Below, one piece after another: positions 9,067 through 60,786 of a stretch of DNA of 64,000 nt. This DNA comes from Camelus ferus. Its lineage: Eukaryota. The notes beneath the pieces are model-generated. The model ran no database searches. It had not been told where the DNA came from and worked only from the letters and a program-made list of their open reading frames with translations. The stretch is taken from contig NC_045696.1 of the NCBI RefSeq assembly GCF_009834535.1, positions 72,294,001 through 72,358,000 on the forward strand, in the 5' to 3' direction. The number at the start of each line of letters is the position of its first letter. Position 1 is the stretch's first letter. The position numbers and the translations under genes were made by a program.

Positions 9067-10417
9067 CTAGTTTTCATATGTGCAATAGCATATTCTCACC
9101 CTTAAGGAAAAAATAACTCAGATTTTGTAATTATACTAATGAACTGTAACAGGGTTATTGAGGTTGTTTTTGGTGGGACTGTGGGCCATTCGCAGGAAGG
9201 GCCATGGTCTCTACAGCCACAGTGTGATGGGTGGTAGGAGATGGGGAGGGGGACATGTGATGCCGTCCACTGCAATAATGTGGCAGGTCACATGCTGAAG
9301 AGATCACAGAGAACCCTCTGAGCCAGAACAAGCATTTGTAGAGCCACATCAAGAAGCACATTAGCCATTTCTGGGATGGTAAGTTTCTTGTGGAGGATAT
9401 TTTGCAAACATTATTGCGGAAAGTAAACATTTCTTTAGAGATATATTTGATTATAACTCTGTAAATAAACACCATATTAAGGGACCAGGGACTCCAGTGG
9501 GTGACAATAACCTCACTGCTAGAGCTTCTTGGATCTGGAGTGACCTAGTTTAGGGTCTGTAACTCTGAGCTTGGCAGTTTGATTTTCCTAGTGTCCCAGG
9601 AGGTCTAGCCATGTGACTAAGTTTCCTATTTCCCTTTTTCTCCCTAATATGTATAAGTGAAAATTAAACAGGAGATTATTGTTCTTATCTTTAAGGTGAG
9701 GACCAAGCTTATCAACGTGCAAAATACTTCTGAATTCTCAAATGTTATCCGCAGGTAAACCAGGAGTCCAGCAGATGTTCTCTGTAGGGTCGGGAGCAAC
9801 CTCTTCACACTGGAGGCTTCCATGTATGGCCTGCTTTGCTTTCTCCCATCTCCCCCTACTTCTCCGTAACCTCAGACCCTCAGGCCTTCCAGGCAAAATT
9901 AGCCAGTAACCTGTCAAGTTATCTCAATCTCACCCCTGAGAGGCCTCTTAGGCTGCTGTTGCCTGTTTACACTACCTTCATCTCACATGCTCATCAAATC
10001 ACCCTGCAGTCAGGGTCTTCTGGGACGCCCAGTACTGTCATGATATCCTAAGTAGACTTGCAACCGGTCACAAGCTCTTTCAGGCTCCAAGCTGTCTGCA
10101 CAAATAAACCCCACGACTTTTCTCCCCTCTTCCACTACTGTGCTATAAGTGGAATTAGTGGGGACATGTGTTAATTTCTTCAGCTTATATTTATCTAATT
10201 GTTCCTAATTTAGTTGTGTTAGAGTTGTCATTGATTATAAGATCCTGGAGTTCAGGATGTGTGTTCTACCTGGTCTGAATGATGCTCATCTAGGGCCACA
10301 TGCAACTGGGTGCTTCATAATGATGAGAAGATGAACATTCCACCTTTGGGTCTAACTTGCATTGTCCCGAAAGGATAAAGTCCAGCCCCTCAGGTTTGTA
10401 ACATATCTATTTTGGCT
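9067..10417 (-). pseudogene. Fossil TSP1 cluster (about 5-6 repeats) ending in a PLAC-like module
   Basis: GQCKLDP/RWNV..PVACGPR; SGRGEKSRGVYLC; LEPERACDRLQ..GRP..QGD; VTHWSPWSL/YGVYLQS; ACSGSEG..QHVTCH...TCPP..RPWP; RICYCTYEN* (cf. PLAC CCxTC). Confidence 0.75.
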
Positions 10418-17414: not shown

Positions 17415-17628
17415 CAAATGACCCACAGTAAAGAGTAGCATGCACACCCTAGCACTCTGACACTCAGTGGGGATATCAGCTAGCAGTTAGGACCCTTTAC
17501 TCAAATGCATTGTATCTAGCAAAGGAAGAGAGTGACCAGTACTCCATGCACATCAACAAACAATGACATCCTGAAACATAATGACCACAAGCATGGTATC
17601 CCCCATCTCACCTGTGGCCAAGTGTAGC
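17415..17628 (-). pseudogene. Fossil TSP1 exon
   Basis: Acceptor ttttccacctttattccctaag, then GYTW/TGE/WG/ACGH, FVDVHGVLVTLFLC and PTECQSARVC..FTVGH. Confidence 0.6.
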
Positions 17629-17673
17629 CTTAGGGAATAAAGGTGGAAAATAGCAATACTAAAGAAAAGATAC

Positions 17674-18010
17674 CTGTAAAGGGGCTTTTACTAAATTGTT
17701 AAAGGTGTCAAGCTTCTTTTCCTTCTCCCTGTTAGTAAACTCTTCATGGTTGAAGGCATGGAGGCTTAATGACAGGAGATGGACATGCCACAGACAGAAG
17801 TGGCCCTTGGACCCTGGAGGTCACTGTGTGATGGTGTGTGTGAAGGAATGTGCATCCTTTTTACGTCTTTGTTCCAGAGGACATGGTCCACTGGCAAATC
17901 CTGTTGCACTAAGATAGGAGGGTACAGATAACCCAAACATAATGCAGACATGTGGACATTGTTTTCATGACATGGCATTCCGAATCCAAAGTGCACCACC
18001 CCTCTCAAAA
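17674..18010 (-). pseudogene. Fossil TSP1 repeats
   Basis: FGFGMPCHENNVHMSALCLGYLYPPIL/CNRICQWTMS; SCH*ASMPSTMKS; ends PFTG|gtatct (donor). Confidence 0.65.
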
Positions 18011-18399
18011 AACAAACAAGGCTTTGGTTTCTTTCTGCATGGAGAACTCTAGGTTTGTAAGTCCCTCGCATTTTCTCAATCTCTAACTCTTTTTCTCTCT
18101 GTGTTTCTGTTGATTTCAAGTCTCTTTCTCTTTGTCTCTATGTCTCTCTTCTTATGTCTCTATCCAGAAAATACTTTTACTTACATATGTGTTATATCTC
18201 CTAGACATTGTGCTCATTACCTATAGATACAATTGACTAATATATACAAAACATGTAGCATGTTTGTACAAATCATACACACACACGCACATACACACAC
18301 AAACACACACCCTACATACTTCTAACTCCCAAGTAAAAAGAAATTCTCAAGTCAATCTGTCATTGAATGGGCAAACACAAATTACTTTAACTATCTTTT

Positions 18400-20540
18400 A
18401 TGGAGGAAAGACAATTTAGTTTTTTCAGAAATAGTGTGAGGATGACTTGGATTTACTAATATTTGCTCTAATGGAATTGGTTCCCTGCCCATGGACTTGT
18501 GTTCTCTATTATCAGCTCTTGGTCTCCACTTGGGCTTCATCTTTGGAACATTTTCTTGGTACTTCTGTTATTTGTTGTTAACTTTGTACTGTGGAGTCTG
18601 TCCTGTTCTCTACATGCTCACCTGGACTTGTTCTTTTTATCTGTCTTGGCTCCCAGATCCTTCTTCCCCTGGGGTACTGATTTCAATACCCTGAAGCCAC
18701 AAGGAGGCAATGTCAGACATTTATTCCCATAGGCCCTGGTGTTTCCAGGGGGTTCCTTCTTGTCTCTGCTCAGGGATCTCTGCCTCCAAAGACCTACCCA
18801 GTACTTCAGCTGCAGCTGAACTGGGCTGCAGATTTTGGGGGAACATGGAACCCTTGTTGGGTGGTTCATTTCAGAAAGCACACCTGGGCCCCAGTGCCTG
18901 GGTTCCCATGACCAGGTGCCTCAACTTTAGGCCTCCAAACCACACAGAGGCCACAGAGTGACATACCAGGCTAGCAGTGAGCCCCACAGCCTCCTCCTCT
19001 TGCTACAACCAAGAAGGCTCATGTTCCACTGCAGAGCCTAGGACACCTGGTCCTATTGGCATTGTTTCTGCCCCAACCATGTAACAGCTGCACCAGGAGC
19101 AATTCACCTGCAACTCAAAGACATTGCTGTGCTTTTGCCTGTGGGTGCAATTATATCAGGACACATGGAGCTCCAGGTCCCCAAGGGGTTTCGTGGTTTG
19201 CTTTGTATTTGGTGAAAGCAGAGTTAAATAGAACATACTTCTAGATTAGGAAGCCTTCATTAGAGGACTTCATGAAACTTTTAGTATCATTAAGGCACAA
19301 ATTTGGGGCTGTGCTTGGTATAAGTTGGACTCAATATTATCATGATTTTGCCTAGAGGTGGGTAAATGGCTGGCTGTGCCATGTAATTTCAGAATGGAAT
19401 GACTGAGTCTTAGGACTTAAGTTTTAGGAAGGGCTAAGAGGTGTGATTTTTGGTGAACTGGTATGAATTCCTTCTCTTCTTCCCTTTTTCTAATATCTGA
19501 CCAATATCTCTCACACTGGCTGAATGTTGTGAGGTTCAGGATGTTCTCATCAAGATTTCACTCATCATCCTGCATTGCCCAAGCTGTGCTCCCATCTGCA
19601 TTCAATCTAGTTTGGAGGGCAGATTCTGGATTCAAGGTACATGGATTCAAGTCCTACTTCCAGTGTTTATTCATTATGTGGCCTTTATGTAAGTCACTTT
19701 ACCTCTGAGCCTTAATTTCTACATCTATAAAATGGCACTAATAACAGTAGGTACTACATGGGATAAAACAGTGCCTGACACAAAAAGAGACTAAAAAATA
19801 TTAGCTATTGTTATCATCGTCATTATGACCAGTCTGCCTTCACATCACCCAGAACCGTAACGTGTGACATCTCACTGGTCCAGTCTCTTAAAATCTGTCC
19901 ATCTTGGATAATCTACACTGACAATTGAGTAAAACTGCCACCAGGAGTTCCAAGAGGACCTATCTTGATATACCTATACAGGCATACCTTGCCACAGGGC
20001 AAGTCACACACAGAGAAATTCTCACAAAATAAGAACTGAAATTCTATCAGAATACCTGAATTTGGAGCCATTATGATATTTATCTCAGCCTCCTCAGGGA
20101 ACCTCTGCACTATTCCTGCAGTGTCATCAGGGCCCTGGAAGTTGACCAGTATCTGATACATTTTATGGGCCCTCAGGATGCCTGCTAACCTGCCAAAGTC
20201 AGGACCTGAGACATGTTCTCTAGCACTGGGACTTTTACAACACCATCCAAGAACAAAACAATGCCTGACTTCTCCCCTAGTGTTTACACAGCAAGAAGCT
20301 GCAGGACAACTTCTGGGGGCCTTTCACCCCAGGTGTTGTCCTCATTTTTCATTGCCTTCAAATAGAGTATTATTTGATCCAGCAGGACCAGATTTCCATC
20401 TGTACCCCAGAGAACTTAAACAGGGTATGAAGAGTGTTGTACAGGAAGTATTGGACTTAGAATGATCTCAGAATCAGTTCCGATATCCAGTCCACTGGAC
20501 CAAGGTAACCCAAGGAAGCCATCACAGAAACCCATTCCAC
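18400..20540 (-). pseudogene. Large fossil exon: Cys-rich end, ADAMTS spacer, 4-5 TSP1 repeats and a low-complexity linker (MIR inserted)
   Basis: GFCDGFLG; NTSCTT...LGY...PAGSNN...HLG; GP...PNSGILIEF; CENFSVCDLPCGK; PRW..DWT..YGSG.M*RQ; RLNADGS...DDE*NLDE; QVNCSWCS; AWYVTLWPLC..GGLKLRHLV; TRVPCSPKICSP. Confidence 0.8.
19612..19826 (+). mobile_element. MIR inserted inside a TSP1-coding region
   Basis: MIR core aagtcactttacctctgagccttaatttctacatctataaaatgg and 3' tail ttagctattgttatcat. Confidence 0.85.
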
Positions 20541-20789
20541 CTTTGAAGAACTTTAACTTACTACTAATCAAATCTGATTATCGCTTTAATCCACGGTTTA
20601 ATGGCAGAAGGGAAACTGAATGAGTAGTGCACCTGATATTGTATCAGTGTGATTTTGCTGGTTTGAACGCAGATGTTTCTGACTCTAAAGCCCAGAACTC
20701 TCTATCACACCTCACTTCTTTTTTCTGAGGATACAGCTGATACCCACCCTCAAACAGACTCAACTCCTAAAAGGACGTAAGAAATAATT

Positions 20790-21985
20790 TTATGTATGTA
20801 TGTATGTATGTATGTATGTATCTAAAGTATAATTGATCTACAAAACCATGTTAGTTCCAGGTGTACAGCATAGTGATTCAATATTTCTATATAGTACAAA
20901 ATGAATACTACAGTAAGTCTAATTACCACTTGTTGCCATACAAAGTTATCAAAATGTTACTGGCTATATTCCTCATGTCATATATTTCATTCCTGTGACT
21001 CATTTATTTTGTATCTGGAAGTTTGGTCCTCTTAATCTCCCCTCATTTATTTCACTCATTCCCTTCTCCCCTTCCCTCTGACAACCATCTGTTTGATGTC
21101 TGTATCTATGAGTCTGTTTCTGTTTTGTTATATTTGTTCATTTGTTTTGTTTTTTAGATTCACATTTAAATGAAATTATATAGTATTTAGATTTAGATCA
21201 TATAGAACTAGACTGACTATTTTGCTTGGCATAATACTCTCTAGGTCCATCCATGTTGTTGCAAATGGCAAGATTTCATTCTTTTTTTTCCTGGCTAATA
21301 TACCATTGTATATATACACCACATCTCTTTTATCCATTCATCTCTTGATGAGCACCTAGATTGTTTCCATATCTTGGCTATTGTAAATAGTGCTGCAATG
21401 AACATAGGGGTGTATATATCTACTCAAATTAGTGTTTCTATTTGCTTTGGAAAAATATCCAGGAGTGGAATAGCTGGATTTTATAGTAGTTCTAGTTTTA
21501 ATTTTTTGAGGAACCTCCATGCTGTTTTCCATCGTGGCTGCAGCAGTTTACATTTCCACCAACAGTGCATGAGGGTTCCTTTCTCTCCATACTTTGCCAG
21601 CACTTCTTATTTGCTGTCTTTTTGAAAATAGCCATTCTGACTGGTATGAGGTGAAATTCCACTGTGGTTTTGATTTGCTCTTCCCAGATGATTAGTGATG
21701 TTGAACATCTTTTCATGTGTCTGTTGGCCACCTGTATGTCTCTTTTGGAAAAATATCTGTTTAGGTGGTCTGCCCATTTTAAAATCTTTTTATTGTATTT
21801 TTGATGTTAAGTTGTGTGAGTTCTTTGTATATTTTGGATATTAATCTCTTATCAGATATATTGTCTGCAAATATCTTCTCCCATTCAGTAGGCTGCCTTT
21901 TGGTTTTCTGACAGTTTCCATCACTGTGCAAAAGCTTTTAAATTTTTGTCCCATTTGTTTATTTTTGCTTTTGTTTTCCTTGATA
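20790..21985 (-). mobile_element. 5'-truncated L1 with (TATG)n tail
   Basis: ORF2 C-terminal peptide [14 protein letters not shown] on the minus strand, plus L1 3' UTR. Confidence 0.9.
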
Positions 21986-22127
21986 AAAAGACATAAGAAA
22001 TAATTTAATTTATACAAGTACATTTGAGCTGCCTTTGACAACTAGGTGGAATGCAGTCATGAGGAAATGGGAAAAGGAGAGGACAACTCAGGCAGAAGGA
22101 ACAGAGTGAGGGCAGACATGAGGTGAG

Positions 22128-22233
22128 ACTCTGGAGTGCATCTCTGGGGAACATGTGTGTGAATGGTGCATGGATCCAGGGGAAGTAGCTATAACACCTC
22201 CCTGGGATGTAATGTGTTTGTGTAGTATGTGGA
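22128..22233 (-). pseudogene. Fossil exon start: second half of central TSR and start of Cys-rich domain
   Basis: Acceptor ttttttctag, then PHTTQTHYIPGRCYSYFPWIHAPF...PRDALQS. This fits PxPxxGGxYCxG...YxxCxxxPC...FRxxQC with Cys codons decayed. Confidence 0.45.
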
Positions 22234-23499
22234 CTAGAAAAAAAGACTAGGAATAAAATACCTACATGGCAATGGTGATTGTGCAGTACAGATGAATTAG
22301 AGGTAATTTCTTCTTTTCTCTAATTTTTATTGTGCAATGTGCATGTCCTCTGGCCTTGCCTGTGAATCAGTCCACTGTGTCTCATACTGCCTTTGTGTCA
22401 TTGTCACTGCTCTACTCTGGGCCCTGCCTCATGACCACTCTATGCTGCTGACATCATTTGCCTATAAGGCAGGCTTTTGTTTGGTCTGCCTAGCTACTCA
22501 CTCTAGAACTGCTGCACAGCATCTTTCCTAGACCTCAGCCAACCCAGGAACCCTGCTCCCTGCAGCACTCTCCTCACTGCTTGTGACTTTGACCACAACC
22601 TGCCCTCATGTCCTCACCCTGACTCCACCGCGCTCTTGCCAACAAACTGCCTGCTCTGGTCCTCCACTCATCTGGCCATTGCACTACCCTTGTGTAAAGC
22701 TCTTTGAAGTGACCCCAGACACAGTTGCTTGGGGTCCTAGGTCCTGCAGCTTCCACTTAGGATTCAGAGCAACACCCTTACAGCCTGGGCTCTGCTGGAC
22801 TGAGTACAATGTGGAAAAACATGTTCTCCTGTTCTTTATAAAGATGTACGTTAAAAAAAAAACCCAAACCAATCAATCAACCAACCAGCTAACCAACCAA
22901 AAAACCATACCTGTCATGGGTTGGATCATTACTTTTTCCCAGGGCATGTACACACCAGTAGGGTGGCTGATCTGGGTGGTTTCAGTGCCTACTATGTGCC
23001 TGACTGTTACGCCAGGTACTGGGACACACGAAGACAGGAGAATCCAAGTTCCACCTTCACAGAGCTCACGTGGCAATGAAGGAGACTGCCCACAAACAAG
23101 TCAACCAGCAAACAAATAATATAATTTTGTGTGGTTATAAGTGCTAAATCTAAGTTAGGGTGGGAAAGTCAATAGACAAAGTAAATACTTATGAAGGAAG
23201 AGATCTTAGCCTCACACAACCCAATTTCTATCTGAAGAGGACTTCTTTAACAAAAATACAAAGAAAAGACATTTTTATATTGCAATTGGTAGTCTGTTAG
23301 GTCACCTCTATGAAATTGAAAGTAGAAGTGTTGCAAATATTCATTCTACTTTTACGTAAATGCCCTTCTTGGGAAAACTTGGTGTCAGTTCCTTATGTGT
23401 TATGATCTGGCAACTTAAATACAGAAATATGTATTACAAAGTTATCACGTTGGAATAATTTTAAAAGCTAATTTACTGGTGGAATTCTAGATTCACAAT

Positions 23500-23820
23500 A
23501 TCCTTCCCAGAGCTGGCTAAGCGCTTGCAGTCCTAGCTCATTACCTTGCACTCCCCTTTGTGTTAATGATCGCACTAATTACCTGCAGGTGTCTTTAGTT
23601 CCACCTTTAAGGAATAGTGTTTTCACTTGGCTTAATTCCAATTAAGCTGTTTACCTCTCTATGCAAATTCTCCCTGCAACTGGAAGAATTCAAGTAAATT
23701 TTGTGTCCAGTTAAGTTTGTGCTGCTAAGATAATATTTAGATTTGAGGGGATAGTTTTTGCTCCCTATTGATTTGCATTCTACTTCATGAGCGCAACAAA
23801 CATATTTTCAAGATGAATTT
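23500..23820. promoter_or_regulatory. Candidate conserved enhancer inside an intron of the fossil gene
   Basis: Repeat-free; octamers ATGCAAAT (23661) and ATTTGCAT (23771); TGTTTAC; several TAAT/ATTA; retained CpGs. Confidence 0.35.
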
Positions 23821-24504
23821 GTATTAAAAATAAAAAAATTAAGATGATAATGGGAAATATTACATAGTTCCTTTTAGTTAAAAACTTCCAAGTGAAAAAT
23901 AAAGTTCAAAGGTTGTCTTTGTGATAGATATACATTTCCCCCCGACAACTGATAGTTATCTATAAACACACACATTTCTCCTACAAACTGTTTTTTGTTA
24001 ACATGGGTTTTGTGTGATGAGAATATAAACAATTTCCAAAAAATTGAGGTTAAATTTTACATGCAGTTAACTGTACAGGTCTTAAGTATAATAGTCAATG
24101 AATTTTGATAAATGTATTCACCTATGTGTCCACTACTCTAATTAAGGATATTTCCATTATTCCAGAAAATTATCTAATGTCACAGTTTGAAGTATGTAGC
24201 CTGTATTTGACTATAAGAATAATTGCAGTCTGAAATTATTCATGCCAATATGTTACAAATATAGGTCTCATGAATACATTTTACCAGTATCTTAACCAAA
24301 CAAGTCATTTTCTTTAACATCTGCTAGCAGTTAAATATTGTTCATTGCCCATGGGCTTATCAGCAGTGCCAAAATCATTTGGGGAAAACTTTACTCCTAA
24401 GGTAGCAAAGGCTTACTGATTTATTTAACAACAAGCTAATTATAATAGCTTCTTATAATTAGCTGAAGGCAGGAGGTTTTGTTTCATTTACATCAAACAT
24501 GTCC

Positions 24505-28440: not shown

Positions 28441-30030
28441 TTCTTCCTTTCCAGATTCAGAGACCCCAGGGAGAGCTGAGGGGAGGATGCTGCTGGAGAC
28501 TGCTTATTCTTACTTGAACAGGCAGTGTTTAAAAGAAAGAAAAGACATGTACTTATTTTCAAAATTTGGCCTTTTCCCTCCATTCTCTCCCTGCTACAAG
28601 CTTCTATTCAGAGACTCATTTTCTCCCTCAGACATTTTAGCTTCTGAATTTATTTCACAAAAAGCATGACATAAGTTTTCTTTCTTATATATTTTTTGAG
28701 GTGACAGTGAATTTCCCCAACTTCCAGCATTTTCTGCCAGTTGCTTCAGCAGGGGAGCACAGAACACACTTTAGGAGCTACGGCTGCCAGAAGGAAGCCC
28801 AAGGGCCAGTGGCAGGATGGTGCCCTCAGGTGTTTAAGTGCTCTAGGGAGCGTTTTACCCCAAGACTTTATTGCTTCTGGGGAAGAACAGAGTGTGATCT
28901 GATGGCCTGCGTGCTGGGCTGGGCTTCAGGAAGGCAAGAGCCTGGTGCTGCTTTGGGGAGGGAGCCTGGAGTAAGTCTCTTTCATTTCTGTCTGTTTCTG
29001 GACACAGGATTTGAGCTAGCCACAGTTCCTTTGCTGCCTTCAGAAATATGGTGGGGAATCCCTGCCCTCCAACCTCCCACCTGCATACTTCCTGGAGGCT
29101 GTACTTTAAGTGACCTTAAGAAAACCCCAAACAGAAAATCAGAATTTGTGGAAGTGATGATGGGAGAGAAAGGAAGAGGATATTGAACATTCATGCTACC
29201 ACATTTGTTTTTTATATAACAACATTTAAATGATGATTTAATTTAAAAAACTAATGTGACATACATCTTCTTCATGAGCAGATACATGTAGTTGACAGGG
29301 GAAAGGAAATAGAATATATTGAGTGACCTTTGTCCTCTGTTACCTTGTTGAGTCTTCACAACAACTGTATATTGCAGATAGCATTATTCATTTTTGGTGT
29401 GAGGAAATTGAGGCAGAGAGGTCACATAATTAGCAAATTAAGTAGCTAAAATTAGACAAGCCAAGATTCCAACCTGAGGCTAAGACGGGTGCTGTGAACC
29501 TCAAGAGGGCCTCTGTTGTGAGTCAGGGTCCCCTGCTAGTATCCTGGCAGTCACTTCCCTCCTCAGAGTCTGAATCTCAGGAGAATCTTGTCTTTCTGGC
29601 TTCACAGGGCTGTTGTGACAACCATGACCTCGAGACAACATGGGGAAGTGCTTGGTAAATGACAATACATTATACAAACACCAGAGGGAATCAGTATTAC
29701 TCCATTGTCATTGAGTGAGGCACACCTATTAATGAATTAATGAGCTATTCGACTGACGGACTTGCTGTGTAGTTTTGTCTCCTATAGCAGAATACTAACT
29801 GAGGCCTCTTGTCACCTGGGCACATTCTCAACACTGGTTTGTTACACACTGATGTGAAGTGCAGGTCATATAATGGGCACTTAATGCCCATGAAGAGGGT
29901 GTGTGGGGTAATCCTTAAAAGCAGGGCTGCTGGAGCCAAATTGCCTGCCTCTACCACTTGCCAGCTTTGTGCCTCTGGCCAAATTAATTAATTTCTCTGT
30001 GTCTCAGTTTTCTTTCTTTTTTAAAAAAAA

Positions 30031-31600
30031 TTTTTAATTGAAGTATAGTCAGTTTATAATGTGTCAATTTCTGGTGTACAGCTTCATGTTTCAGTCATAC
30101 ATATACATATATACATATATTCCTTTTCATATTCTTTTTCATTATAGGTTACTACAAGGTATTGGATATAGTTCCCTGTGTTATACAGTAGAAACTTGCT
30201 TATTTTATATACAGTATTAGTATCTGCAAATCTGAAACTCCCAATTTATCCCTTCCCAACCCCTTCCCCCACCCCTCAGCAACCATAAGTTTGTTTTCTA
30301 TGTCTGTGAGTCTGTTTCTATTTTCTAAATAAGTTCATTTGTGTATTTTTTTTTTTTAGATTCCACTTATGAGTGATACATGGTATTTTTCTTTCTCTTT
30401 CTGGCTTACTTCACTTAAAATGACGATCTATGGGTCCACCCATGTTGTTGCAAATGGCATTATTTTATTCGTTTTTTATGGCTGAGTACTATTCCATTGT
30501 ATAAATATATTACACCTTCTTTATCCAGTCATCTGTCAGTGGACATTTAGATTGTTTCCATGTCTTGACTATTGTATATAGTGCTGCTATGAACATTGGG
30601 GTACATGTATCTTTTCAAATTAGAGTTCCCTCTGGATATATGCCCAGGGGTGGGATGGCTGGATCCCATAGGTAAGTCTATTTTTAGTTTTTTAAGGAAT
30701 CTTCACACTGTTTTCCACAATGGCTGCACCAAATTACATTCCCACCAACAGTGTAGGAGGGTTTCCTTTTCTCCACACCCTCTCCAGCATTTATCATTTG
30801 TGGACTTCTGAATGATGGACATCCTTACTGGTGTCAGGTGATACTTCATTGTAGTTTTGACTTGTATTTCTCTGATAATTAGTGATATTGAGCATTTTTT
30901 CATGTGCCGATTGGCCATTTGTATGTCTTCAATGGAGAATTGCTTGTTTAAGTCTTCTGCTCATTTTTGGATTGGGTTGTTTGTTTTTTGGTTATTAAGC
31001 TGTATAAGCTGTTTGTATATTCTGGAAATTAAGCCCTTGTCAGTCACATCATTTTCAAATATTTTCTTCCATTCCTTAGGTTGTCTTTTTGTTTTGTTTA
31101 TGGTTTTCCTTGCTGTACAAAAGCTTGTAAGTTTAATTAGGTCCCATTTTTGTTGTTGTTGTTGTTGTTTTTATTTCTATTGCCTAGGTAGACTGACCTA
31201 GGAGAACACTGCTAAGATTTATGTCAGAAAATGTTTTGCCTATGTTTTCTTCTAGGAGGGTTTATCATGTCTTGTCTTATTTTTAAGTCTTTAAGCCATT
31301 TTGAATTTATTTTTGTGTATGGTGTGAGGGAATGTTCTAACTTCACTGATTTACATGTGGCTGTCGAATTTTCCCAACACCACTTGCTGAAGAGACTGTC
31401 TTTTCTCCATTGTATGTTCTTGCCTCCTTTGTTGAAGATTAATTGACCATAAGTGTGTGGGTTTATTTCTGGGCTCTCTATTCTGTTTCATTGATCCATA
31501 TGTCTGTTTTTGTGCCAATACCATGATGTTTAGATTACTGTAGCTCTGTAGTATTGTCTGAAGTCTTAGAGGGTTATTCATTCTTTTTCTTCAGTATTGC
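30031..31600 (-). mobile_element. 5'-truncated camelid-like L1 (ORF2 C-terminus plus 3' UTR)
   Basis: [31 protein letters not shown]; same 3' UTR family as the L1 at 11015. Confidence 0.92.
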
Positions 31601-31606
31601 TTTTCT

Positions 31607-32265
31607 GGGCATTTTTAAATTGGGTTATTTATTTATTTTTGTTGTTGTTGAATTGTAGGGATTATTTATATATTTTGGATATTAACCTCTTATCAGATAT
31701 GTGATTTGAAAATATTTTCTGTCATTTTCAATAGGTTGCCTTTTTGTTTTGATGATGGTTTCCTTTGCTGTGCATAAGCTTTTTAGTTTGATGTAGTGTG
31801 ATTTATTTCTGCTTTTGTTTCCCTTGCCTTTGGGGTCAGACCCACAAGAACATTGCTAAGATCTATGTCAATGAGGTTACTGCCTACTGAGGTTTTCTTC
31901 TGTGGATTTTATGGTTTCAGGTCTTACCTTCAAGTCTTTAATCCATTTTGATTTAAATTTTGTGTATGGTGTAAGATAGTGGTCTAGTTTAATTTTTTTT
32001 GCATGTGGCTGTCCATTTTTCTTAACACCATTTATTGAAGAGAGTATCCTTTCTCTACTGTATATTCTTTGTTCCTTTGTCATAAATTAATTGTCCATAT
32101 ATGGGTGGATTTATTTCTGGGCTCTCAATTCTGTTCCATTGGTCTGTGTCTGTCTTTGTGCTAGTATGATACTGTTTTAATTACTATAGCTTTGTAGTAT
32201 AATTTGAACTCAGGGAGCATGATACTTCCAGCTTTGCTCTTCTTTCTCAAGATTGTTTTAGCCAT
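31607..32265 (-). mobile_element. Second L1 ORF2 fragment from a different or older subfamily
   Basis: [28 protein letters not shown]. Confidence 0.85.
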
Positions 32266-33959
32266 TTTTTTACATTTTTTTCTTTCTTATTTTTAACCTA
32301 CCACATCTGTATTCCTGATTCTTATTTCAGTCCCTCTATTCCAGTTATACCTTCTTCAGAAAAGATTGTTAACACTTCTTTCCTTGCCCTCCTCATTACA
32401 ATGTTTTTTTTCTCTGTCTTTCACTTAGTTACTTCTGACTTTTTCTCACTGATGGGGGACAAGGAAAGCATGTAACATTAAATTTTAAGATATCCCGGGA
32501 TCCCTTTTTAGTTAGTGCTTAGGAATTTTCCTAAAAAAAGTTTTCATACAAGCTTTTTATAGGCATCAAAATAGAGTTTTAGTGTTTTACAAGCAATTAA
32601 TTATAAGGTAAATTAGCTATTGGAAATTGTGTTCTCACAGACCTTTGGCTAGATTTCCTGTTACAGGTCTAAAGGTCCTGTTGCTCACCATACATTTAAT
32701 GATAATTACCTCTTGCAAATATCTGGAAGTAGCAAGTTGTGACTCTATCTGCTGTTTTCTAGTATGTCTTACCAAGATCTGCCTGCACCTTTCTCAGGAA
32801 GATGAATTTTGCATTTCAACAAATAAAACATGTAATGCTTCCTTGCAAGAAATTGTGCAGGCTTCTTTTTAGTACTACAACCAAAGACTAGAGGAGGGTC
32901 CATCCCCTGAACCCATCTCAAATGAATTAACATGCTATGATTGAACTTCTTTACTGCCAATCATTTCTGTCTAAAGAGAGGTCGAAAAGGGAGTCAGAAT
33001 GCCCCTCTCTTCTGAAGCAAAACCCCTTGTATATAAAATTCATTGTGTATGTTCCACAAAAAAAATGGTGATCCAGATCTATTTGGATATTTAATTTTTT
33101 AAAAAGGTAGAAACTAGTATTATAAGTGTAACATACTATCTCATTGTTTGAACTGGTATTTCTTTACTTATGAGTCTGAGTATTTCCCCATATATTTATT
33201 AGATCTGTATCTATATCTTAATACACATTTCAATATAAATATATATCATTTTGAATATTTTTCTATTAATGCCCTTTGCATTCTTTTCAACTGCTATGAT
33301 TATTTCCATATTGATTTATATGAACTCTTCATGTATTCAGACACTATCCAACTATCCCATATGTTTCAAACATTATCATTTTCCAGTGTATTTGCCTTTT
33401 GGTTTTGTTTCTTATATGGAAAATAAAACATGTATGTAGTTGAATCTTGATCTTTTAAAAATGTGTTTTTAAAATTATGTCTTATACTCACAGACATAGA
33501 GAACAAACTTATGGTTACCAGGGGGTTAAAGGGGTGGGAAGGGATAAATTGGGAATTTGAAATTGCACCTCTTTGGGAGTGATGGAAATATTAGCTATCT
33601 TGATTGTGGTGTATACATCTATCAAAATTCATCAAATTGTACATCTGAAATATATGTAGTTTACTGTACAGGAATCATACCATAATAAAGGTGTTACAAA
33701 ATTACATCTTGTTTTCCCTTTTTCTAACACATTAGAAAGAGAGAGAGATAGAAGTAATCCAGTGTTTCTAGTGAGTTAATAATCAGCCTCTAAATGTTAT
33801 TGAATCTGAGGTTTAGAAATCAATTATGTCTCATTTATTTATTTAGGAAAAAATCAAGTAGTGGGAGGAGGGGAGAAACAGAAATTGGCATTAATTCTGA
33901 AGAAAAGTGGCTGTGGGTATGCTCATTGAAGCTCCCCATTTTACCATGCAGAACGGAAA

Positions 33960-34330
33960 GGGATCTCAGGTGTCAGAGGTCATCTCTTTCACTCGCCTTA
34001 CCCAGTGCAGGAATCCAGCCAGTATGACTTCCACAATCTCTGTGACAGTGGCCAGGATAGCTCAACTCTTCCACTACAACTTCAAATGTCAGCCCGACAT
34101 ATCTTCCTTATGTTTTGCTGCAATTTGCCTGACCTTCCTTATGTTTTGCTGCAATTTGCCTGCCTGTAAGTTCCACACATCAAGTCTAGCTCTGCCCTTT
34201 TGAGCCACAGAGATAAAGTTGGTTTGGCTTGGAAAACTTCAACAATTCAGAGAAAGTTGATGTATCTGAGATGCCTCTTTTCCAGGACAAACACCTTGAG
34301 ATCCTTTCTCTGTTCCTCCTCCCACACAGT
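33960..34330. mobile_element. L3/CR1-like relic containing a 31-bp-period tandem duplication
   Basis: cctgtaagttccac...ctagctctgccctt...gagccacag resembles the L3 3' region. Confidence 0.5.
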
Positions 34331-34651
34331 GTTGAGACTCCCCGCTAGCCTGTCTGCCATCTCCTGGACACATCCCAGTGTTCGTCTATCTCCTTGCCTG
34401 TGGGAGCCCCATACTGAATGCAGAATTCTGTGTGAGCCCGATGGGGGCAGAACCAGTGCAAATATAACCTCCTGAGGTCTCTTCTCTCCACGCAGACCTG
34501 TGTCTGCTCATTTCCCTTTGCTACTTTTTGCTTTCCCAGCCACTGTCTCTGTCTCAGGAACCCTGAAGCTGGTGGCCTGGGCATCTGGTCTTGCCTTTAC
34601 TCCATTCTACCCTATGTGGAAGTTTGTTCGTTTTCATTGGTTGGGCTTGTT

Positions 34652-34724: not shown

Positions 34725-37699
34725 TGGGGCTTGTTGTTGTTGACAGAACTCTGACAGACTTCTTACTTAGCTGCCTGGCAAGAGCTGTTTGGGGACCACT
34801 TATTTGCTTCCACTTCCCTTTCTCCTAGTTTGAAAGCCCCTGCCTTTTGCTGGCAGTGGCAGCAGTTTTCATCCTGGATTTGTGGGTCAAGGTTTTGGTT
34901 TTGGACTTTGGCCTCACTATCTAGTTAGACTGGTGCTCAGGCCTGGCTGGTCTAGAGACTTCCACTGAGACTTATCTGGGGTGGCTGGGGATGCAGTGCA
35001 GGGCAGGACAGGACTGGGGTAAAGCAAAGGTGGGGCGAGTAGAGCCCATGGGGCTGGGCTGCATGGAAAACTGACTCAGCTGGGCCCAGCGGTGGTAGAG
35101 CTGGTAGGTAGAAGAGGTAGGTGGCAGAGGTGCCACCTACCAACAGCTATGGGGGAAGTGGATTTAACTAAGTCATAGTCCTGGCTAACTAGCTGGGAGA
35201 CCCTGGACAAGTCGTGTATCCTCTCCCAGAAGATGACACTGGATGGCAATGCCAGCTGCTGCTTTCCTTCAAGCACTGACTCTGGCACTGTGCAGCTTCC
35301 AGCACCACAGGCATCGTCCCAACCAATTATAGCAGCAAACTCATGAGGAAGGTCCTATTCCTGCTCATTTTACAAAAGAAAAGATAGTAACTTAAAGAGG
35401 TTAAACAACTTGCCAAGACCACAGTGTTAGTAAGGAGCTGAGCTAGGATTTGATTCTAGGTGGCCTGAGTGCCTGTGCTCCTAACCACAATGCTATGCCC
35501 TTTCTGCCCCTCCCCCAATTCTGCTCAGTTCTTTGGCCTGTTATGGTTCAGCAGCAGCTCTAAGGGTTGGGCAGGACCATGTTCAGGCCATTTGTCTTTG
35601 GTGTGGCAGAACCTTCCTGGATACCTGTGGATTTATGCTCCTTAATTTTCCACCTCTGAGCTAAGGCCTCCCACGCTCTCCTAACGTGTGCAGGCAGCAA
35701 ATGTTCAGGTAGCAAGAGCACATTTCTACCAGAAGTGGTTTTATGTCAGTTTTGCTATCAGCATCTCCATATTTAGGGATAAAACTAGAAACAAAACCAA
35801 CTATGAGTTTCCCTAAGTGGGAAGCTTCTCTAAAATATTGTTATTAATTATTCATGTTAGCTGAGGTTGTTAAACTATTTCTTTCTTCTTGTAGACATAA
35901 GAAAAAGTAATTGCTCTGGCCTTCTCTCTTTTCTGATGTCTTGGCATGCCAAAGCCTGAGAAAACTTAACCCACAGAATGAGTAACACTTTGTAGCTACA
36001 GACTGGAAGTGCAATTGCCCAAGGTTGTGGAAATATTATTGCAACATGGGAGCCAGCCTCTTAGAAGAAGAGAGAGAGAGAGGCTGAGAGAGAGACAGAT
36101 CGAGAAAGAAGCCTACAGTTCTCTACTGAAAAAATTCTTTCCTCTTTAAAGTATTTAATTTGCCTTCGTTTAATGCAGCATAATATTGTAGTTATGATTT
36201 TCTTGGGTTTACACATTATATTGACAGGGCTCAGTAATCCCTGGGTTTGTGTAGTGTCCTCCCTAGAATTTTCATATTTTCATATTTATTATCACCACAT
36301 GTGTGTATGTGTGTGTGAGAGCCAGGATTAGAGAAATGTTTGTCTTGCCATTTACATAACAACTAAAATGAACTGATGCTGTTTCATAAAAGTTAGATTT
36401 CTGTGTCTCTGTAGTTGTTTACTTATAAGTTTATTTTGATCCCAATTACATCACTAGGAACCCTTCAGTACTATTTATCTAAATTACTTTTGGCTTCGTC
36501 TATGTTCTCTCTCTCATCTATTTGTATCCGGGTATAACTTAATCTTCTGCCTTTTTGTTTTCTTTCTGCCTAAGTGAAAAACAAGAATGCCGAGATTGCT
36601 CCACGACACACCTGTGCACTGTTGCAGAGGAGCTGATCTTGAGGGAAGGCTGGTTTTGCCACACAGGTGGTGACTGGGAGGCCTCAACAAGCCTCCAAAT
36701 AAAGAGGGGTTAAAAACAAAGCCCGGGTATGTGGAGGTGGAGGCTAGGATGGGGGGAAGGAAACACCTTTGACAAGAGTATTTAGCAGATGTTGCTTAAT
36801 TACTCTGAGTGCTAAATGGAATTAGAAAGCAAATGTCAAAGGGAAGTAGAATTTTAACGTGTGCACGCACACATACTCCCTCCTCTCCTCTCCCTCCTGA
36901 CTCTCTAAGGGGCACCCTTTCTACATTTTCTTTCTCATGTGGCTCCTGTTCCTTGATACCATGATAGAAAACGAAAGATTGAGAGACTCCATCCAGTTAA
37001 CTCCATGCACTTTTAGAGTCTCGGGTCAGAGGCGGACTGCTTCCAGATGGAGCTAATTTTTTCATTGGGGTTGAACTGCTTCTTTTTTCTCAACAGAATA
37101 TAATTGGTTTCAATTTTTTCACCAGACACTAAAGAAGAACTTAACACAATATAGTTACCATTGGCATTTTAGGTGCTAGTGCAGCAGGCAAAACAAGGGA
37201 TTTAGATTTTGAAGTTTTGGAACACAAACTCAAATGCTTTGTCAGATTGTTTGCTGTTGTTTGTTGTTGTATGTATAACTGGACCCTATATGGCTTAGAT
37301 TAGAATAGGGATAAATGTGAGTCATTTAATAATATTTCTGCTTTCTACTTTCTGTCTAGAGCACAGAGTATGCCCCATTCACTGTTTTGTTTGTTTGCTT
37401 CTGTTTTTTTCCAGAAGGAATATTAGCATTAGGAGGCTTGTCAACTATTTACTACCATTTAGCCATCTACTTAACTCAGCTTTTTCATCTATAAAATAGG
37501 AATGATTCTTTAATGTTGTGACAAATGGATAGTGGCCAATAAAGAAAGGGGTAGTTTCAATCTGTAAAATAGCATACAAAGAATTTTAACCTTAAAAAAT
37601 TAGATATCTTTACAATATTAAAGAAATGGTCATTTGAAAACATTCTCTTCCAGTAACCAAGAAATGTACCTGAAAGAATCATGACATTATATTTGGTGG

Positions 37700-46379: not shown

Positions 46380-46535
46380 CCCTGTCACCTGGCCACATCT
46401 AGTTGCAAGGGAGGCTGAGTAGATGTGGTCTTTATTCCATGTGTTAATGCACCTAGCCAACAATAAGTATTCTGCTAAAATAAAAAGGAGGAGGAGAATG
46501 CATTTTGGCACAGACAACCAGCAACCTCTGTTACA
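46380..46535 (-). mobile_element. MLT1-type (MaLR) LTR fragment
   Basis: Minus strand reads cagcctcccttgcaactagatgtggcca. Confidence 0.65.
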
Positions 46536-47189
46536 GGTTTTAACACACTTTTCCAGTTTTTTCTCCTACCATTCACCCGTGTAAGTACATCTTGTGTGGA
46601 AAACTCCTAGTTTGCTTGCTGGTCTAAATATGGTACAACTTTTCCCACTTCTGTGTCCTTGCTCATCATGTTCCCTCATTTGAAATGCCTCTGGACTCCT
46701 TTTCTTGTTCTAAGTTCTCATCCTTAAGGCTCAAATTGGAGCTTTGCCCCTACATAAATTTTCTTCTAGATTCCAGTGCTCTTGTCTATACCATTCATGG
46801 CAATGTTCACCTTTTAAAATATACACCCTATGCCTTCCTTTTAAGCCTGTCAGTGCAAAGAATAATAGACTTTCTGAAGCAAAAAAACTAGCATGATGCC
46901 TTACTGACAGTCAGTGCTTGGCAATTATTTTTGTTGTTGCTGATAACCTAGGCTAAGGTTTGCTGAGGAGTATTAAGGGTTATGTAATAGATCTGGACTG
47001 AGAATAGTTGAGTCAAGTCATGGGACTATGCTATCTCTATACCTCTCGTCTAAGAATACAAACAATACTGGGAGCATTCATTCATTACAGTGGAGTAAGG
47101 AGAAGGATTAAGGAGTCTCAAAAATTATTGTAACCTTAATCCAAAAATTAAGCCCTATTATTTTTGAATAACATCAGAATTGGGATAAT

Positions 47190-48521: not shown

Positions 48522-49592
48522 TTATTTATTTATTTATAAAATAAAATAAAAATTTTTAATTGAAGCATAGTTGCTGTACAATATATGTTACAGGTGTACA
48601 ATATAGTGATTCACAGTTTTTAAAGTTTATACTCCATTTACAGTTATTATAAAATATTGGCTATATTCTTTGTGTTGCACAATATATCCTTCTAGCTTAT
48701 TTTCTACCTAACAGTTTGTATCTCTTACTCTTCTAACCTTATGCTGCCTTTTCTCTCTCCACTGGTAGTTTGTTCTCTATATCTCTGAGTCCGCTTCTTT
48801 TTTGTTATATTTTTTGTTGAATTTTTTAGATTCTACATATAAGTGATATACAGCATTTATCTTTCTCTGTCTGACTTATTTCACTACCATAATGCCCTCC
48901 AAGTCCAACCATGTTGCTGCAAATGGCAAAATTCTGTTCTTTTTTATAGCTGAGTAGTGTTCCATTGTATATAAATACACCACATCTTTAGCCATTCATC
49001 TGTTGATGGATAGTAAGGTTGTTTCCATATTTTGGTAATTGTAAATAATGCTGCTATGAATGCTGGAGTGCATGTATCTTATTGAATTAGTGTTTTCGTT
49101 TTTTTTTTTTTTTAGATATATACCCAGGAGTGGAATTTCTGGATCATATAATAGTTCTATTTTTGGTTTTTTTGAGAAAATTCCATACTGTTTTCTACAG
49201 AGGCTGCACCAATTTACATTCCTACCAACAGAGTATGAAGATTCCCTTTTCTCCACATTTTCACTAACATTTGTTATTTGTGTTTTTTTTTAATGGTAGC
49301 CTTTCTGACAAGTGTGAGGTGACATCTCATTGTGGTTTTGATTTGCATTTTCCTGATGATTAGTGATGTTGAGCATCTTTTCCTGTGCCTGTTGGCCATC
49401 TGCATTCCTTCTTTGGAAAGATGTCTGTTCAGGTCTTCTGCTCATTTCTCAATTGGGTTGTTTGTTTTTTTGATGCTGAGTTGCATGAGCTGTTTATGTA
49501 TGTTGGATATTAATCCCTTATCAGTCATATCATTTGCAGATATCTTCTCCCATTCAGTAGGTTGTCTTTTTGTTTTGTTGATGGTTTCCTTC
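48522..49592 (-). mobile_element. 5'-truncated L1 with 16-bp TSD
   Basis: TSD ctgcttaga(c/t)acttta at 48506-48521 and 49593-49608; ORF2 C-terminus. Confidence 0.92.
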
Positions 49593-50437
49593 CTGCTTAG
49601 ATACTTTAGATTGGTCTGATTCTCAGTTCAGGCTATGTCAGGGCCCTATTACTCTTCCTCATTTGCTATTTAAAAATTTTATGGTCTTATAATGTCTGCA
49701 TCCATCTCTCATAGGTTCTAAAGTTTGTGCAAACAATTTGTACTAGACAAATTGAAATCAGTTACCTATTGATGAATGAATAGATGACTAGTTTCCTTCT
49801 GACATTCTCTCCAATGTGTGCTACAAGAAAATCATTTCCAGGAGCCAGAAGAAACTACCCAGTGGTAGTGAAGAGCTAGTCCCCTGTCTCTTTTGTTCTA
49901 ATGAAACAACTGAGTTTCTAAGAATATTTGGTTGTCAAAATAATTGTCTCAATAGCTTAGAGGTTAGAGTTTCAGATTTATATAACATAGCTATTTTTTT
50001 CCTTACAGGAGTTTAAATAATAACATTAAAAATTATAAATATGATGTTTGACTAAACTGCACGAAAATAAATCTAATGTCTCTTTTTCACTTCTCTTGAA
50101 AACACAAAGTCAGGAATCTTAACTCTCTTAGCACTTCCATTATGATTAACAAAGCACAACGCTGAGATAATAGTCCACTTCCCTCAACAGAATTGCAGCA
50201 CAAATCACAACCATCATGATAAATAGAGACTATGATGTCACAGAAGCAGCAAGGTCCCGGTTATATTACAACTAGTGGAAGATACTATATTCACTTCTAC
50301 CTAATTTACTTCATTGCATCTCATCAACCCACTAATTCATTTCTTCAACAAATACTTCTTGAGTGCTTAGTGTCAGCACTGTGTTAGGTACTAGGTTGAA
50401 CAAAACAGTCCTAAACCCCGTCTTCATGAAGCTTTGC

Positions 50438-56284: not shown

Positions 56285-56710
56285 AATACTAACACTTATT
56301 GAGCACTTGTTGTATGCCAGGCACTCTGCGCATCAGCATACTTGCATTACTTCGTTTGGTTTCCCATTAGTTACTATTTCCATTTATAGATAAGAAAAAT
56401 GAGTTTTAGAAAAGTTAAGTGAATTGCCCAAAGACAGTGGCAGAACTGAGATTTGAATGCAGGCTGACTAACTCCAGGGCATGTAGCAATCTGCCTCCTT
56501 GCACAAAGTTATGTCCTTCCAGGAAAGAATATAATATAGTACATCTTAGACAGTGTTAGAACTTTTCATTCGGCCAAAATGTTCTCTTCTCAGTGCTCCT
56601 ATTTTACAGATGAAAGAACTGAGGCCCCAGTGAGGTTAAACAACTTTCCAGGGTCACAGAGCTAGTGAGATCTGGGATTAGACCACAGATACCTAGACTC
56701 CCAGTCTGAA
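56285..56710 (-). mobile_element. Two MIR fragments (representative; many more MIR/L2 relics at 27-30, 35, 40-44, 50-58 and 63 kb)
   Basis: cattatagataagaaaaatgag-like and ttttacagatgaaagaactgaggccc MIR cores. Confidence 0.75.
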
Positions 56711-59083
56711 GGGTGCCCTCCCTGCTACAAGCTGATGTGTTATCACACAGATTTGGATGTACATGAATCTAGCTAGGTTCCCTTAAACATAGGCCCTCTG
56801 TGCAGTGAAAGCCAGAGGCAGCTCAGCTGACCCTAGATGGTCTTAGTGCTGTCTGCTTTATAAAGAAGCCTGACTACCTCTTTTATGATTTATTGACTAA
56901 TCTAGTAGTACTCATTTCAATTACCAGAGGCCAAGACATTCCCTCTTCTGTGGCTGACTTTGCCTTCTTGTACAAGAACCAGGGTCTGAGAGCTGGCCTG
57001 GGTTGCCTGTGTGGTTCCATTTGGAATTCTCTCTGCTACTTGAGGGCCACAGGGTCTAAAATATCCACAATGAAATGTCTCCTAGCATTAAGGGATTTTC
57101 TAAGTCACAGATTCTGAGATTGTGGAAACAAAACAAAATAAATGAATAGAGATAACAAGGATGACAACAACATAACAAAGCACTTGGAATCAGAAAGCTA
57201 GAGGACCAGGCACCAAGGAGTCACGACTTGAGGGTGAGTGCTGGCTGCTTCCTTCCGAGTTAGGCAGGGGATGGCCCTGCTTGTGTTCCACCAGGAAGAT
57301 TATAAGCACTTAGGCTTCCAGATATTGGGATGAAATTTGAAATGAGAAATAACTGTCTCTTAATGTCAGCTGATCATGGAAAAGCTACTTAGTCTGTTTG
57401 GACCTCAGTTTCTTTTTCTGTAAAATGATATAAATCTTATGAGGCCGCTGTGGTGATTAGGTTAAATTGGACAATGTATCTGAAAGCTCTTAGTAAATGC
57501 AGTGCTCTGCACACACCTATTCTCCATTAATAACCAACTGATGCTTTTAGGAGGTCCTCATGAAAATGAAAATATAAATTTGGGGAGGGCAAACCAACTT
57601 AGTTATTTTTATATCCATACTACCTTAAAAAGTCAGTTTTATGTAAAAGGATGACTCTGGGTGAATAGGGCATAGGTAGGGGTAGGGGCATTTCTTTGGT
57701 TGGGGTGAGTGGGAGACAAAAGGAAAATAAAAAGTCAGGAGCTAGAGCTTCATCTAAGCAAAGGTCTCAATGGACAAACAATGTGAAGGCTATGTGTCGG
57801 GGTGCAGGGGATGAGTAAGAAGGTGTCAGTGAGGGCAAACATTTCTCGTATCACTGTCTGGCCTAGGGCTATCCTTTTGCAGTCTGAGTTACCTTAACGT
57901 GGTGTTTCTCAGTCACTGGTCTTTCAAGCTGCTGGCATCAAAATTACTATGGTGACCTAGCAACTTAAAGATCTTGTAGTCATCAGATAAGAGATCCCAG
58001 TAACAGGAACACTGGCAGTGCGAAGGGAGAAGAAAAATTGAAATGAGTTTTAACCATCATCTACATCTTCCAATTGTGTTTTGAATATCTATGACTTCTG
58101 TTTGGGGACGTGAAGTTAGGTTATATTTTCCATTTTCCATTTCAGAGAAAAAGAAACTTGAATTATGAGGGTGGATTTACCTTTATGTATAGGCAGACAG
58201 GTAATAGTAATCATTATAGTATCTACCATGTACATTATAACTTTCTTACCCAAGTATCAAATCAGGGTTTATAAAACCTTACAATTGAAAGTAGAGATAT
58301 TTTTTATCCTCTCTATATATTCAAGCCATCTTAAATAAAAATGAAATCTCATGCATCTAAATGAGATTCCCACAGTCCCTTGAAAACTCACTTTAATATT
58401 TTGCTAGTCTTCCCACTACATACTAAGTCTCACTGCTATTAATTTTTCTCTAATTGAAGATAGAGACTAGCTTATTGCCACACTTCTGCGGGTAATGTTT
58501 TGTGTCATATTCATATTTGCATTCCCATCACTTACCATTGTCCTCGGCATAAAGCAAGTATTCAATTAGTGTTTGTTGAATGAATGAATCAAAAAAAATG
58601 CATGAATGAATGCTTCTTGTTTCTAATTTACTCTATTGGTGTGTCTCCTTTTTAGTCAGAAAAATTCTAGTTCTTTAATGTTTCATAAGGAATCTGCCTT
58701 CTTTTGAACATCTGAACCTTTGATTGGCTCTTTACTCAATTCTCTCTAACTTTTTCACATTTCCTTTTGGTTTGAAGCTCAGAATTGGAGATCAGTGAGC
58801 CTATCAGGTAAAAATGCTAAAACATTTTGTCACTTATAGAATGGAGTAAAAAGCTTCAATTTTAAGGAAAGGATGGCTATAACTGACTAAGGTCTGGCTT
58901 GTGGGAGGTTTTGGGCCTTAAAGCGTTAGAATTGAAAGGGACTGCAGAAATTATTTCCATGTATTTTTGTTCTTTGTTTTTGGTTTTGTTGGCTTGTTTA
59001 TTTTGATGTAATGATAATGCAGCTTAAGGCAAAAGTATTTATCTCTTAGAAATATTCATTTACAGATTGAATGTAATGATGTC

Positions 59084-59839
59084 TATGGAAGCAAACTAAA
59101 TGTCCGTTGACAGATGATCAGATAAAGAAGATGTGGTATTTATATATGACGGAATACTACTCGGTCATAAAAAGAATGAAATAATGCCATTTGCAGCAAC
59201 ATGGATGGACAAAGAGATTGCCTAATAAGTGAAGTAAGCCAGAAGGAGAAAGAAAAATACCATATGATATCATTTATATGTGGAATCTAAAAAAAAAAAA
59301 AAAAAAAAGACACCAAGAACCTATTTATAAAACAGAGACAGACTTATAGACATAGAAAACAAACTTATGGTTAGCAGAGGGGAAAGGGGGTGGGGAGGGA
59401 TAAATTGGAAGTTTGGGTTTTGCAGATACTAACTACTGAATATAAAATAGACCAACAACAAGGTCATACTGTATAGCACAGGGAATTATATTCAATACCT
59501 TGTAATAGCCTATAATGAAAAAGAGTATGAAAATGAATATATATATACATACACATATATATATATAAAACAACTGAATCACTATGTTTGCACACCAGAA
59601 AATAATACAACATTGTAAATCAACTACACTTCAATTAAAAAATAGATAGACAACAGGTCATATTGTATAGCACAGGGAACTATATTTAACATCTTATAAT
59701 AACCTATATTGAAAAAGAATATGAAAAGAAATATATATATGCATAACTGAATCACTATGCTATACACCAGAAACTAACACAACATTGTAAATCAACTATA
59801 GTTAAATTAAAAAATTAAAATAATAATAATAATAAAATT
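59084..59839 (+). mobile_element. Camelid-like L1 3' end with a tandem second copy of the terminal ~175 nt
   Basis: Degenerate TSD aatg(ta/tt)atgat(g/a)tc at 59070-59083 and 59840-59853. Confidence 0.88.
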
Positions 59840-59937
59840 AATGTTATGATATCCAGAGTTTGCTTGAAAAAAGTCAGCAGGAAAGGATCAGGGAGAAATT
59901 AAGGCACTACAGATGAAAAGAGATATAGTGGTAATTT

Positions 59938-60786
59938 CAGAGAAATGCAAATCAAAACTACAATGAGGTATCACCTCACACCAGTCAGAATGACCATCAT
60001 TAAAATGTTCACAAACGATTCATGCTGGAGAGGCTATGGAGAAAAGGGAACCCTCCTACACTGTTGGTGGGAATGTAGTTTGGTGCAGCCATTATGGAAA
60101 ATGGTATGGAGATTCCTCAAAATACTAAAAATAGACATACCATATGATCCAGCAATCCCACTCCTGGGCATATATCCTGAGAGAATTCTAGTTTGAAAAG
60201 ATACATTCACCCCAATGTTCATAGCAACACTATTTACAATAGCCAAGACATAGGAACAACCTAAATGTCCATCAACAGATGACTGGATAAAGAAGTTGTG
60301 GTATATTTATACAATGGAATACTACTCAGGCATAAAAATGAATAAAATAATGCCATTTGTAGCAACATGGATGGACACGGAAATTGTCCTTCTAAATGAA
60401 TTAAGTCAGAAAGAGAAAGAAAAATACCATGTGATATCACTTATATGTGGAACCTAAAAAAAAAGGACACAAATGAACTTATTTACAAAACAGAAACAGA
60501 CTCACAGACATAGAAAACAAACTTATGGTTACCAGGGGGGAAGGGGGTGGGAAGGGATAAATTGGGAGCTCAAGATTTGCAGAGGCTATCTACTACATAT
60601 AAAATAGATAAATAACAAGTTTATACTGTATAGCACAGGGAACTATATTCAATATCTTGTAGTAACCTATAATGAAAAAGAATATGAAAATGAATATATG
60701 TATGTATAGGTGTGACTGAACTATTATGCTGTACATCAGAAACTGACACAACATTGTAAAGTGACTATACTTCAATTAAAAAAAAG
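59938..60786 (+). mobile_element. 5'-truncated camelid-like L1
   Basis: [18 protein letters not shown] atagtg(g/a)taattt at 59925-59937 and 60787-60799. Confidence 0.92.

Follow-up and report, generated by a model that had tools for sequence, protein, structure and literature searches.

The insert at 19606–19825 is an old dispersed SINE that is shared with other lineages, and we consider it roughly an even bet (about 0.48) that this SINE lies in non-coding DNA whose TSP1-like appearance is due to chance, such that no gene loss is dated here. The window, meaning the whole 64-kb stretch of DNA that was analysed, had been proposed in an initial annotation to carry a dead TSP1 gene whose loss was timed by a MIR element lodged within one of its repeats. 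The insertion proves to be old and shared, but its flanks score at background in TSP1 searches, and neither a named gene nor a date results. The presence at this locus of some true TSP1-gene sequence is given a little less than an even chance; as a TSP1 repeat of any gene, the flanks are unproven. The central features are as follows.

19606–19825, plus strand: MIR-type SINE copy, slightly truncated at its 5′ end, with a B-box-like motif at 19643 and a decayed A/T-rich tail at about 19800–19825
19829–19920, minus strand: ‘first half of TSP1 repeat’ (unproven), in pieces from three frames with two stops
19515–19605, minus strand: ‘continuation’ (LNADGS...DDE, a stop, NLDE), unique DNA that is present in other mammals too, with no match to TSP1 domains
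19351–19514: left flank that still aligns to orthologue-like sequences past the end of the proposed repeat (P0001 to 19351; P0002 and P0004 to 19420)

The surrounding sequence is A+T-rich mammalian DNA that contains 10 stop-to-stop frames of at least 120 amino acids and no long reading frames, and an Rfam search of the whole window returned no matches. Region 17500–24000 is present in 20 of the 24 sequencing runs listed, 15 of which carry 0.85–0.89 of its words, and thus it is no assembly artefact. RNA shares for this region are small (0.09–0.27) and carry no evidential weight. A literature search, mostly among papers outside subscription, found no description of the locus.

Several observations confirm that the insert is a genuine SINE copy. 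When positions 19590–19850 were used as a query, nhmmer detected two further copies in the window at 56583–56728 (E = 1e-4) and 35356–35490 (E = 5e-4), both of which begin to match at 19605–19607 and so fix the left edge of the element. Profile iteration raised the number of copies in the 64-kb window to 11, and the focal copy is 64–68% identical to five of its sisters, a pattern that matches the dispersed and highly decayed repeats of the MIR/CORE-SINE class, which are about 260 nt long or are truncated parts of that unit. The element spans about 220 nt on the plus strand, antisense to the proposed gene, and has a blurrier right edge, where local alignments to the sisters stop between 19732 and 19841. 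Its A/T-rich tail is seen directly in the sequence, and the motif at 19643 resembles a B box; these correspond to the tRNA-derived head with its RNA polymerase III B box and the simple A/T-rich tail of the class. No target-site duplication was found among seven short direct-repeat families. The insertion of about 215 nt described previously is therefore upheld by the sister copies, the edges and the B-box-like motif; we take the element to be MIR. Elsewhere in the window, repeats at 20785–21982, 30008–32294, 48524–49595 and 59084–60797 are similar to each other and presumably represent LINE-1 3′ ends.

The age of the insertion follows from its distribution. A phmmer search with the frame that crosses the SINE yielded 10 matches at E ≤ 0.001, comprising four orthologue-like peptides (P0001, P0002, P0004 and P0005), two that match only the SINE (P0007 and P0009) and four that are unrelated. 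The first six are gene calls on short contigs and most likely represent spurious frames on mammalian DNA. Alignments to P0001, P0002, P0004 and P0011 (the last of which shares a cluster with P0005) run unbroken from the SINE into the left flank, with identities of 15/23, 9/15, 10/15 and 5/11 inside the SINE and 44/77, 35/61, 26/62 and 28/51 in the flank, respectively. The edge between SINE and flank is crossed by a member of each of the four independent clusters of orthologue-like sequences, which share 46–68% amino-acid identity mutually and 51–59% with the window over 41 residues. Judging from simulation, such identity would correspond to roughly 15–30% nucleotide divergence. Because this edge is shared by four clusters and the window, the insertion took place before at least five lineages diverged, in keeping with a MIR/CORE-SINE insertion that predates the splits between mammalian lineages. 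The prediction that the insertion would be old and common to other mammals is thereby borne out. According to the available excerpts of two sources, placental CORE-SINEs have been inactive for at least 130 Myr, with longer activity in marsupials and monotremes (PMC3403934), and the spread of MIR preceded the separation of placental mammals (PMC8143547); the age and sharing seen here fit MIR activity before the placental radiation.

The peptides quoted in support of a TSP1 repeat are all present on the minus strand, but they form a mosaic drawn from three frames, interrupted by three stops and requiring three changes of frame, and their match to TSP1 is at background. Before the insert, YPRWTDF reads from 19910, DWT (19885–19877) lies in a second frame, a stop followed by DVTRYGSG (19874–19848) returns to the first, and the segment that reads M, a stop and RQ (19845–19834) lies in a third. 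Beyond the insert, RLNADGS begins at 19608 with its R codon overlapping the SINE edge, and DDE is followed by a stop codon at 19560–19558 and then by NLDE (19557–19546). The pattern W-x4-W-x2-C-x3-C-G-x-G-x3-R is not found in any one frame, and three frame changes are required to assemble it.

Aligned rows from other lineages bear on this reading in more than one way. The position of the stop that follows DDE is a Cys in five of five such rows, which is what a TSP1 reading requires and which, as judged from the aligned sequences, would favour it. The same rows carry D at the N of RLN and G at the first D of DDE (5/5 in each case), and thus part of the quoted peptide match is private to this genome. 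A second Cys in the second half is found in four of six rows including the window, and the profile match of this half is no better than that against reversed domains.

With TSP1 domains from phage contigs (PF19030 in 11 of 11 rows) as queries, 120 TSR-rich proteins were retrieved; most are ADAMTS9/20 and none is a vertebrate ADAMTSL. The TSP1 profile comprised 943 non-redundant domains. In the viral sequences themselves, IMG/VR contigs L002, L005, L006, L008, L009 and L016–L024 carry genes for proteins in which one or two TSP1 domains of the ADAMTS type (PF19030 in all 11 aligned rows) follow a short conserved lead-in, and one 302-kb contig has four TSP1 pattern matches; the domain is perhaps a virion adhesion domain.

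Searches with these and other resources place the flanks at background. Pfam returned no families for the three minus frames over the locus and no relevant family for other pieces of the window frames; with window frames as queries, PDB sequence searches gave only weak unrelated matches, an Atlas search gave no usable match, and word-index searches gave nothing besides three of the orthologue-like peptides. Use of the 120 TSR-rich proteins in tblastn produced 32 window matches at E ≤ 0.5, and among the matches listed none falls in 19450–20100. HHalign assigned a probability of 0.07 to the pairing of the flank profile with the TSP1 alignment, and hmmsearch of this profile against the 943 domains reached at best 4.9 bits in the forward direction and 6.8 bits when reversed. 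Metagenome loci compared with the same flank profile gave 70 pattern matches, of which none was confirmed. In a motif scan, the quoted piece lies outside the top 14 window matches, and even the best match (ending at 18894) scores 16.1 bits against a shuffle mean of 15.7 ± 2.1.

A frameshift-aware, decay-tolerant profile of the 943 domains likewise reached no more than 15.4 bits over the whole window, compared with shuffle maxima of 11.3–18.2 in 12 runs. With the SINE left out, the locus scores at best 4.3 bits over 320 choices of edge, a value that 28 of 376 ordinary tiles match. At the natural SINE edges, the joined halves score 4.1 bits and the left half alone scores −1.3, and in 10 of 100 controls a join of the left half to random DNA reaches as high a score. 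In a test that compared 220 of the 943 domains in forward and reversed form, the two chunks of the initial annotation rank 1495 and 199 of 1599; the neighbour chunk at 20200–19960 ranks 4 of 1599, and the 2-kb tile that contains the locus ranks 2 of 66.

The top TSP1-like chunk of the window lies on the minus strand at 46400–46600 (rank 1/1599; tblastn E = 0.003). This chunk, at 46598, runs into what we take to be the apparent start of an old LTR, and is counted as a presumed false positive. The second (34140–34490, minus strand; rank 2/1599; tblastn E = 0.066) is a G+C-rich patch that is negative in Pfam.

These values are to be read against the loss of signal with age. When real TSP1 domains were decayed in silico by 20, 25 and 30%, the frameshift-aware profile gave median scores of 9.2, 6.5 and 4.2 bits, and 26, 42 and 51% of the domains, respectively, scored no higher than the locus; true power is lower than this simulation suggests, as the decayed domains were part of the profile. 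A negative TSP1 result at this age is weak.

Three further stretches near the SINE carry possible traces of coding DNA.

19913–20323, minus strand: 136-codon stop-free frame, ending near the C-x3-C-G piece (about 20030–19990), with no family or fold
20191–20490: strongest three-base G+C periodicity of the window (chi2 = 18.3), located 300–600 nt from the proposed repeat
18830–19190, minus strand: G+C-rich stretch with TSP1-like pieces by eye (unproven), namely W..C near 19175 and C..H then WYVTLWPLC near 18990–18950

The stop-free frame is one of seven equally stop-poor stretches in the window. Shuffled windows match the periodicity at 20191–20490 in 35 of 300 and 51 of 300 cases, so that it is not significant window-wide; its base pattern fits a minus-strand frame, for which no protein family was found, and its closeness to the proposed repeat is a weak hint of old coding DNA. 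Strong three-base periodicity also occurs at 9301–9720 (chi2 = 21.6 in a 420-nt window). By a general coding score, the best tile at the locus ranks 31 of 424 and falls below the shuffle maxima. The G+C-rich stretch at 18830–19190 has no Pfam or PDB match on its minus strand, and the full ADAMTS9/20 profile, run on the window, picked out just G+C-rich patches on both strands. Motif and profile scans of the window for further ADAMTS-like exons with splice sites (N-terminal TSP1, Cys-rich, spacer and PLAC) track G+C content only, and Pfam found no relevant families in 11 candidate exon pieces.

Two other domain assignments were considered and rejected. A CUB reading of 20160–19829 is persuasive by eye, and it was negative against Pfam, the PDB and two stored CUB domains; a single-sequence AlphaFold model of it is all-beta with a pLDDT of 45.5 and has no fold match at E ≤ 0.001. 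An ADAMTS spacer reading of the locus is unsupported by the full ADAMTS9/20 profile.

Among the alternatives to a SINE in non-coding DNA, the one that survives best, itself doubtful, holds that a lost ADAMTS-like gene of the ADAMTSL1/3 type, in which an Ig domain is followed by several TSP1 repeats, left its 3′ part at minus-strand positions 20160–18850, and that the SINE hit a TSP1 exon that was dead by the end of MIR mobility, before the placental radiation. Several Cys and Trp pieces do occur in the expected order on one strand, and we presume that their order and spacing resemble the C-terminal Ig–TSP1 region of ADAMTSL1. Two of the stops fall at TSP1 Cys positions, at one of which other mammals keep the Cys. 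The rise in score from −1.3 to about 4 bits when the halves are joined, the Cys in all five rows, the tile rank of 2/66 and the nearby periodicity, whose base pattern suits a minus-strand frame, all count against the preferred explanation, and the rank of the neighbour chunk (4/1599) also favours a lost gene. Set against these points, no search gave a significant match, three frame changes are needed within about 25 codons, and N-terminal ADAMTS domains were found nowhere else in the window. The sole stored protein with both Ig and TSP1, the invertebrate-like P0106, shows no collinear signal and ranks the locus 38 of 126, and it is too distant. In its full form, this alternative posits an undescribed ADAMTSL1/3-type paralogue that would be dead in every placental but still intact in some non-placental vertebrates, its loss being fixed by this MIR before the placental radiation, which we consider unlikely. 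Zebrafish has ADAMTSL genes without a direct human orthologue, as stated in the available part of PMC1867822, and thus a lost paralogue is possible in principle; adamtsl7 is mentioned in a table row within the accessible portion of PMC5951578, and the supplement of PMC10195156 gave no matches.

A good deal less probable is that the TSP1 pieces are genuine but belong to a very old copy derived from an ADAMTS-like gene, whether a retrocopy or a duplicated fragment, that was never functional, in which case the SINE would set no more than a minimum age for this copy and no gene would have died. The pieces from 20160 to 19515 are continuous, without recognisable introns or strong splice sites, and no other exons were found in the 64 kb, as a retrocopy would predict. 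Such a copy likewise has no significant protein match, and the next pieces lie about 300 nt beyond 19515.

It is highly improbable that the flanks derive from a plus-strand LTR-retroelement integrase, now decayed, and that the TSP1 pieces are an antisense accident. Visual inspection does pick out short integrase-like motifs to either side of the SINE, in the order expected, and periodicity lies nearby. Yet three Gypsy-type and two ERV-like pieces gave no tblastn match at the locus, the one tblastx match (16 residues, E = 0.96) came from an unrelated locus, and pairwise ranks range from 11 to 354 of 3198 chunks. Pfam found no families in 11 plus-strand pieces, and neither the PDB nor Atlas gave a match, so that homology to known integrases was not detected, a result that is weak owing to the few references.

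The least credible alternative, that the SINE lies within a true intron of a TSP1 gene and is hence silent on gene death, can point to GT at 19848, 19843 and 19829 and AG at 19608 bordering the insert on the minus strand, but all of these sites fall short of 5 matches to the 7 donor consensus positions or of the pyrimidine cut-off for acceptors (a level met 2.4–2.6 times per kb on that strand), the SINE would occupy nearly the whole intron, and stops and frame changes persist in the flanks. Flanking splice sites had been named in the initial annotation as grounds for abandoning its dating, and by this simple minus-strand cut-off no strong ones border the SINE.

We therefore return to an old SINE in non-coding flanks. 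SINEs insert by retrotransposition, and a tRNA-derived CORE-type element (MIR) would have entered this site in an early mammal, as the decayed sequence and its occurrence in other lineages suggest, and the copy would then have drifted neutrally. The DNA on both sides would be old, unique and neutrally changing, and probably never coded. The TSP1 reading would be a pattern pieced together from three frames; patterns of this kind elsewhere in the window are just as good, and the locus would accordingly date no gene loss.

The significance of the locus depends on which reading holds. On what has been shown, the locus adds a further old SINE and is of little importance. A lost gene, if real, would add an extracellular-matrix gene to the early mammalian losses, with a known location and a clean upper date for its loss from a shared insertion. 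An exon that was real and had the SINE within it must have been non-functional at or after the insertion, before MIR became extinct in placentals. Even so, the SINE would date the loss of that exon only: a gene able to skip the exon would itself go undated, and for a dead-on-arrival copy there would be no loss to date.

Comparison with known systems sets these readings side by side. The insert has in common with MIR/CORE-SINE elements (MIR, MIRb and MIRc) a length of about 220 nt, a B-box-like motif, a shared core and about ten decayed copies in the 64 kb; identities of 64–68% between copies and the sharing of the insertion site by several lineages also fit, and no unusual feature was found. 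With the TSP1_ADAMTS repeat (PF19030), the locus shares scattered W, C, G and R residues whose order is about as expected if frames are mixed, and a comparable length of about 58–60 codons without the SINE, but it gives no significant match, and several expected Cys are other residues in all lineages seen. Were the gene real, it would belong with the unitary pseudogenes of paralogues lost in early mammals, a class surveyed in PMC3296468, in the available part of whose main text neither ADAMTS nor thrombospondin occurs; unlike members of that class, the locus has no parent gene, orthologue or synteny identified here. For such a gene the SINE could serve as a timer in a familiar way. Shared SINEs are an established method for dating pseudogenes, and therefore the gain, if the gene were real, would be the gene and not the principle.
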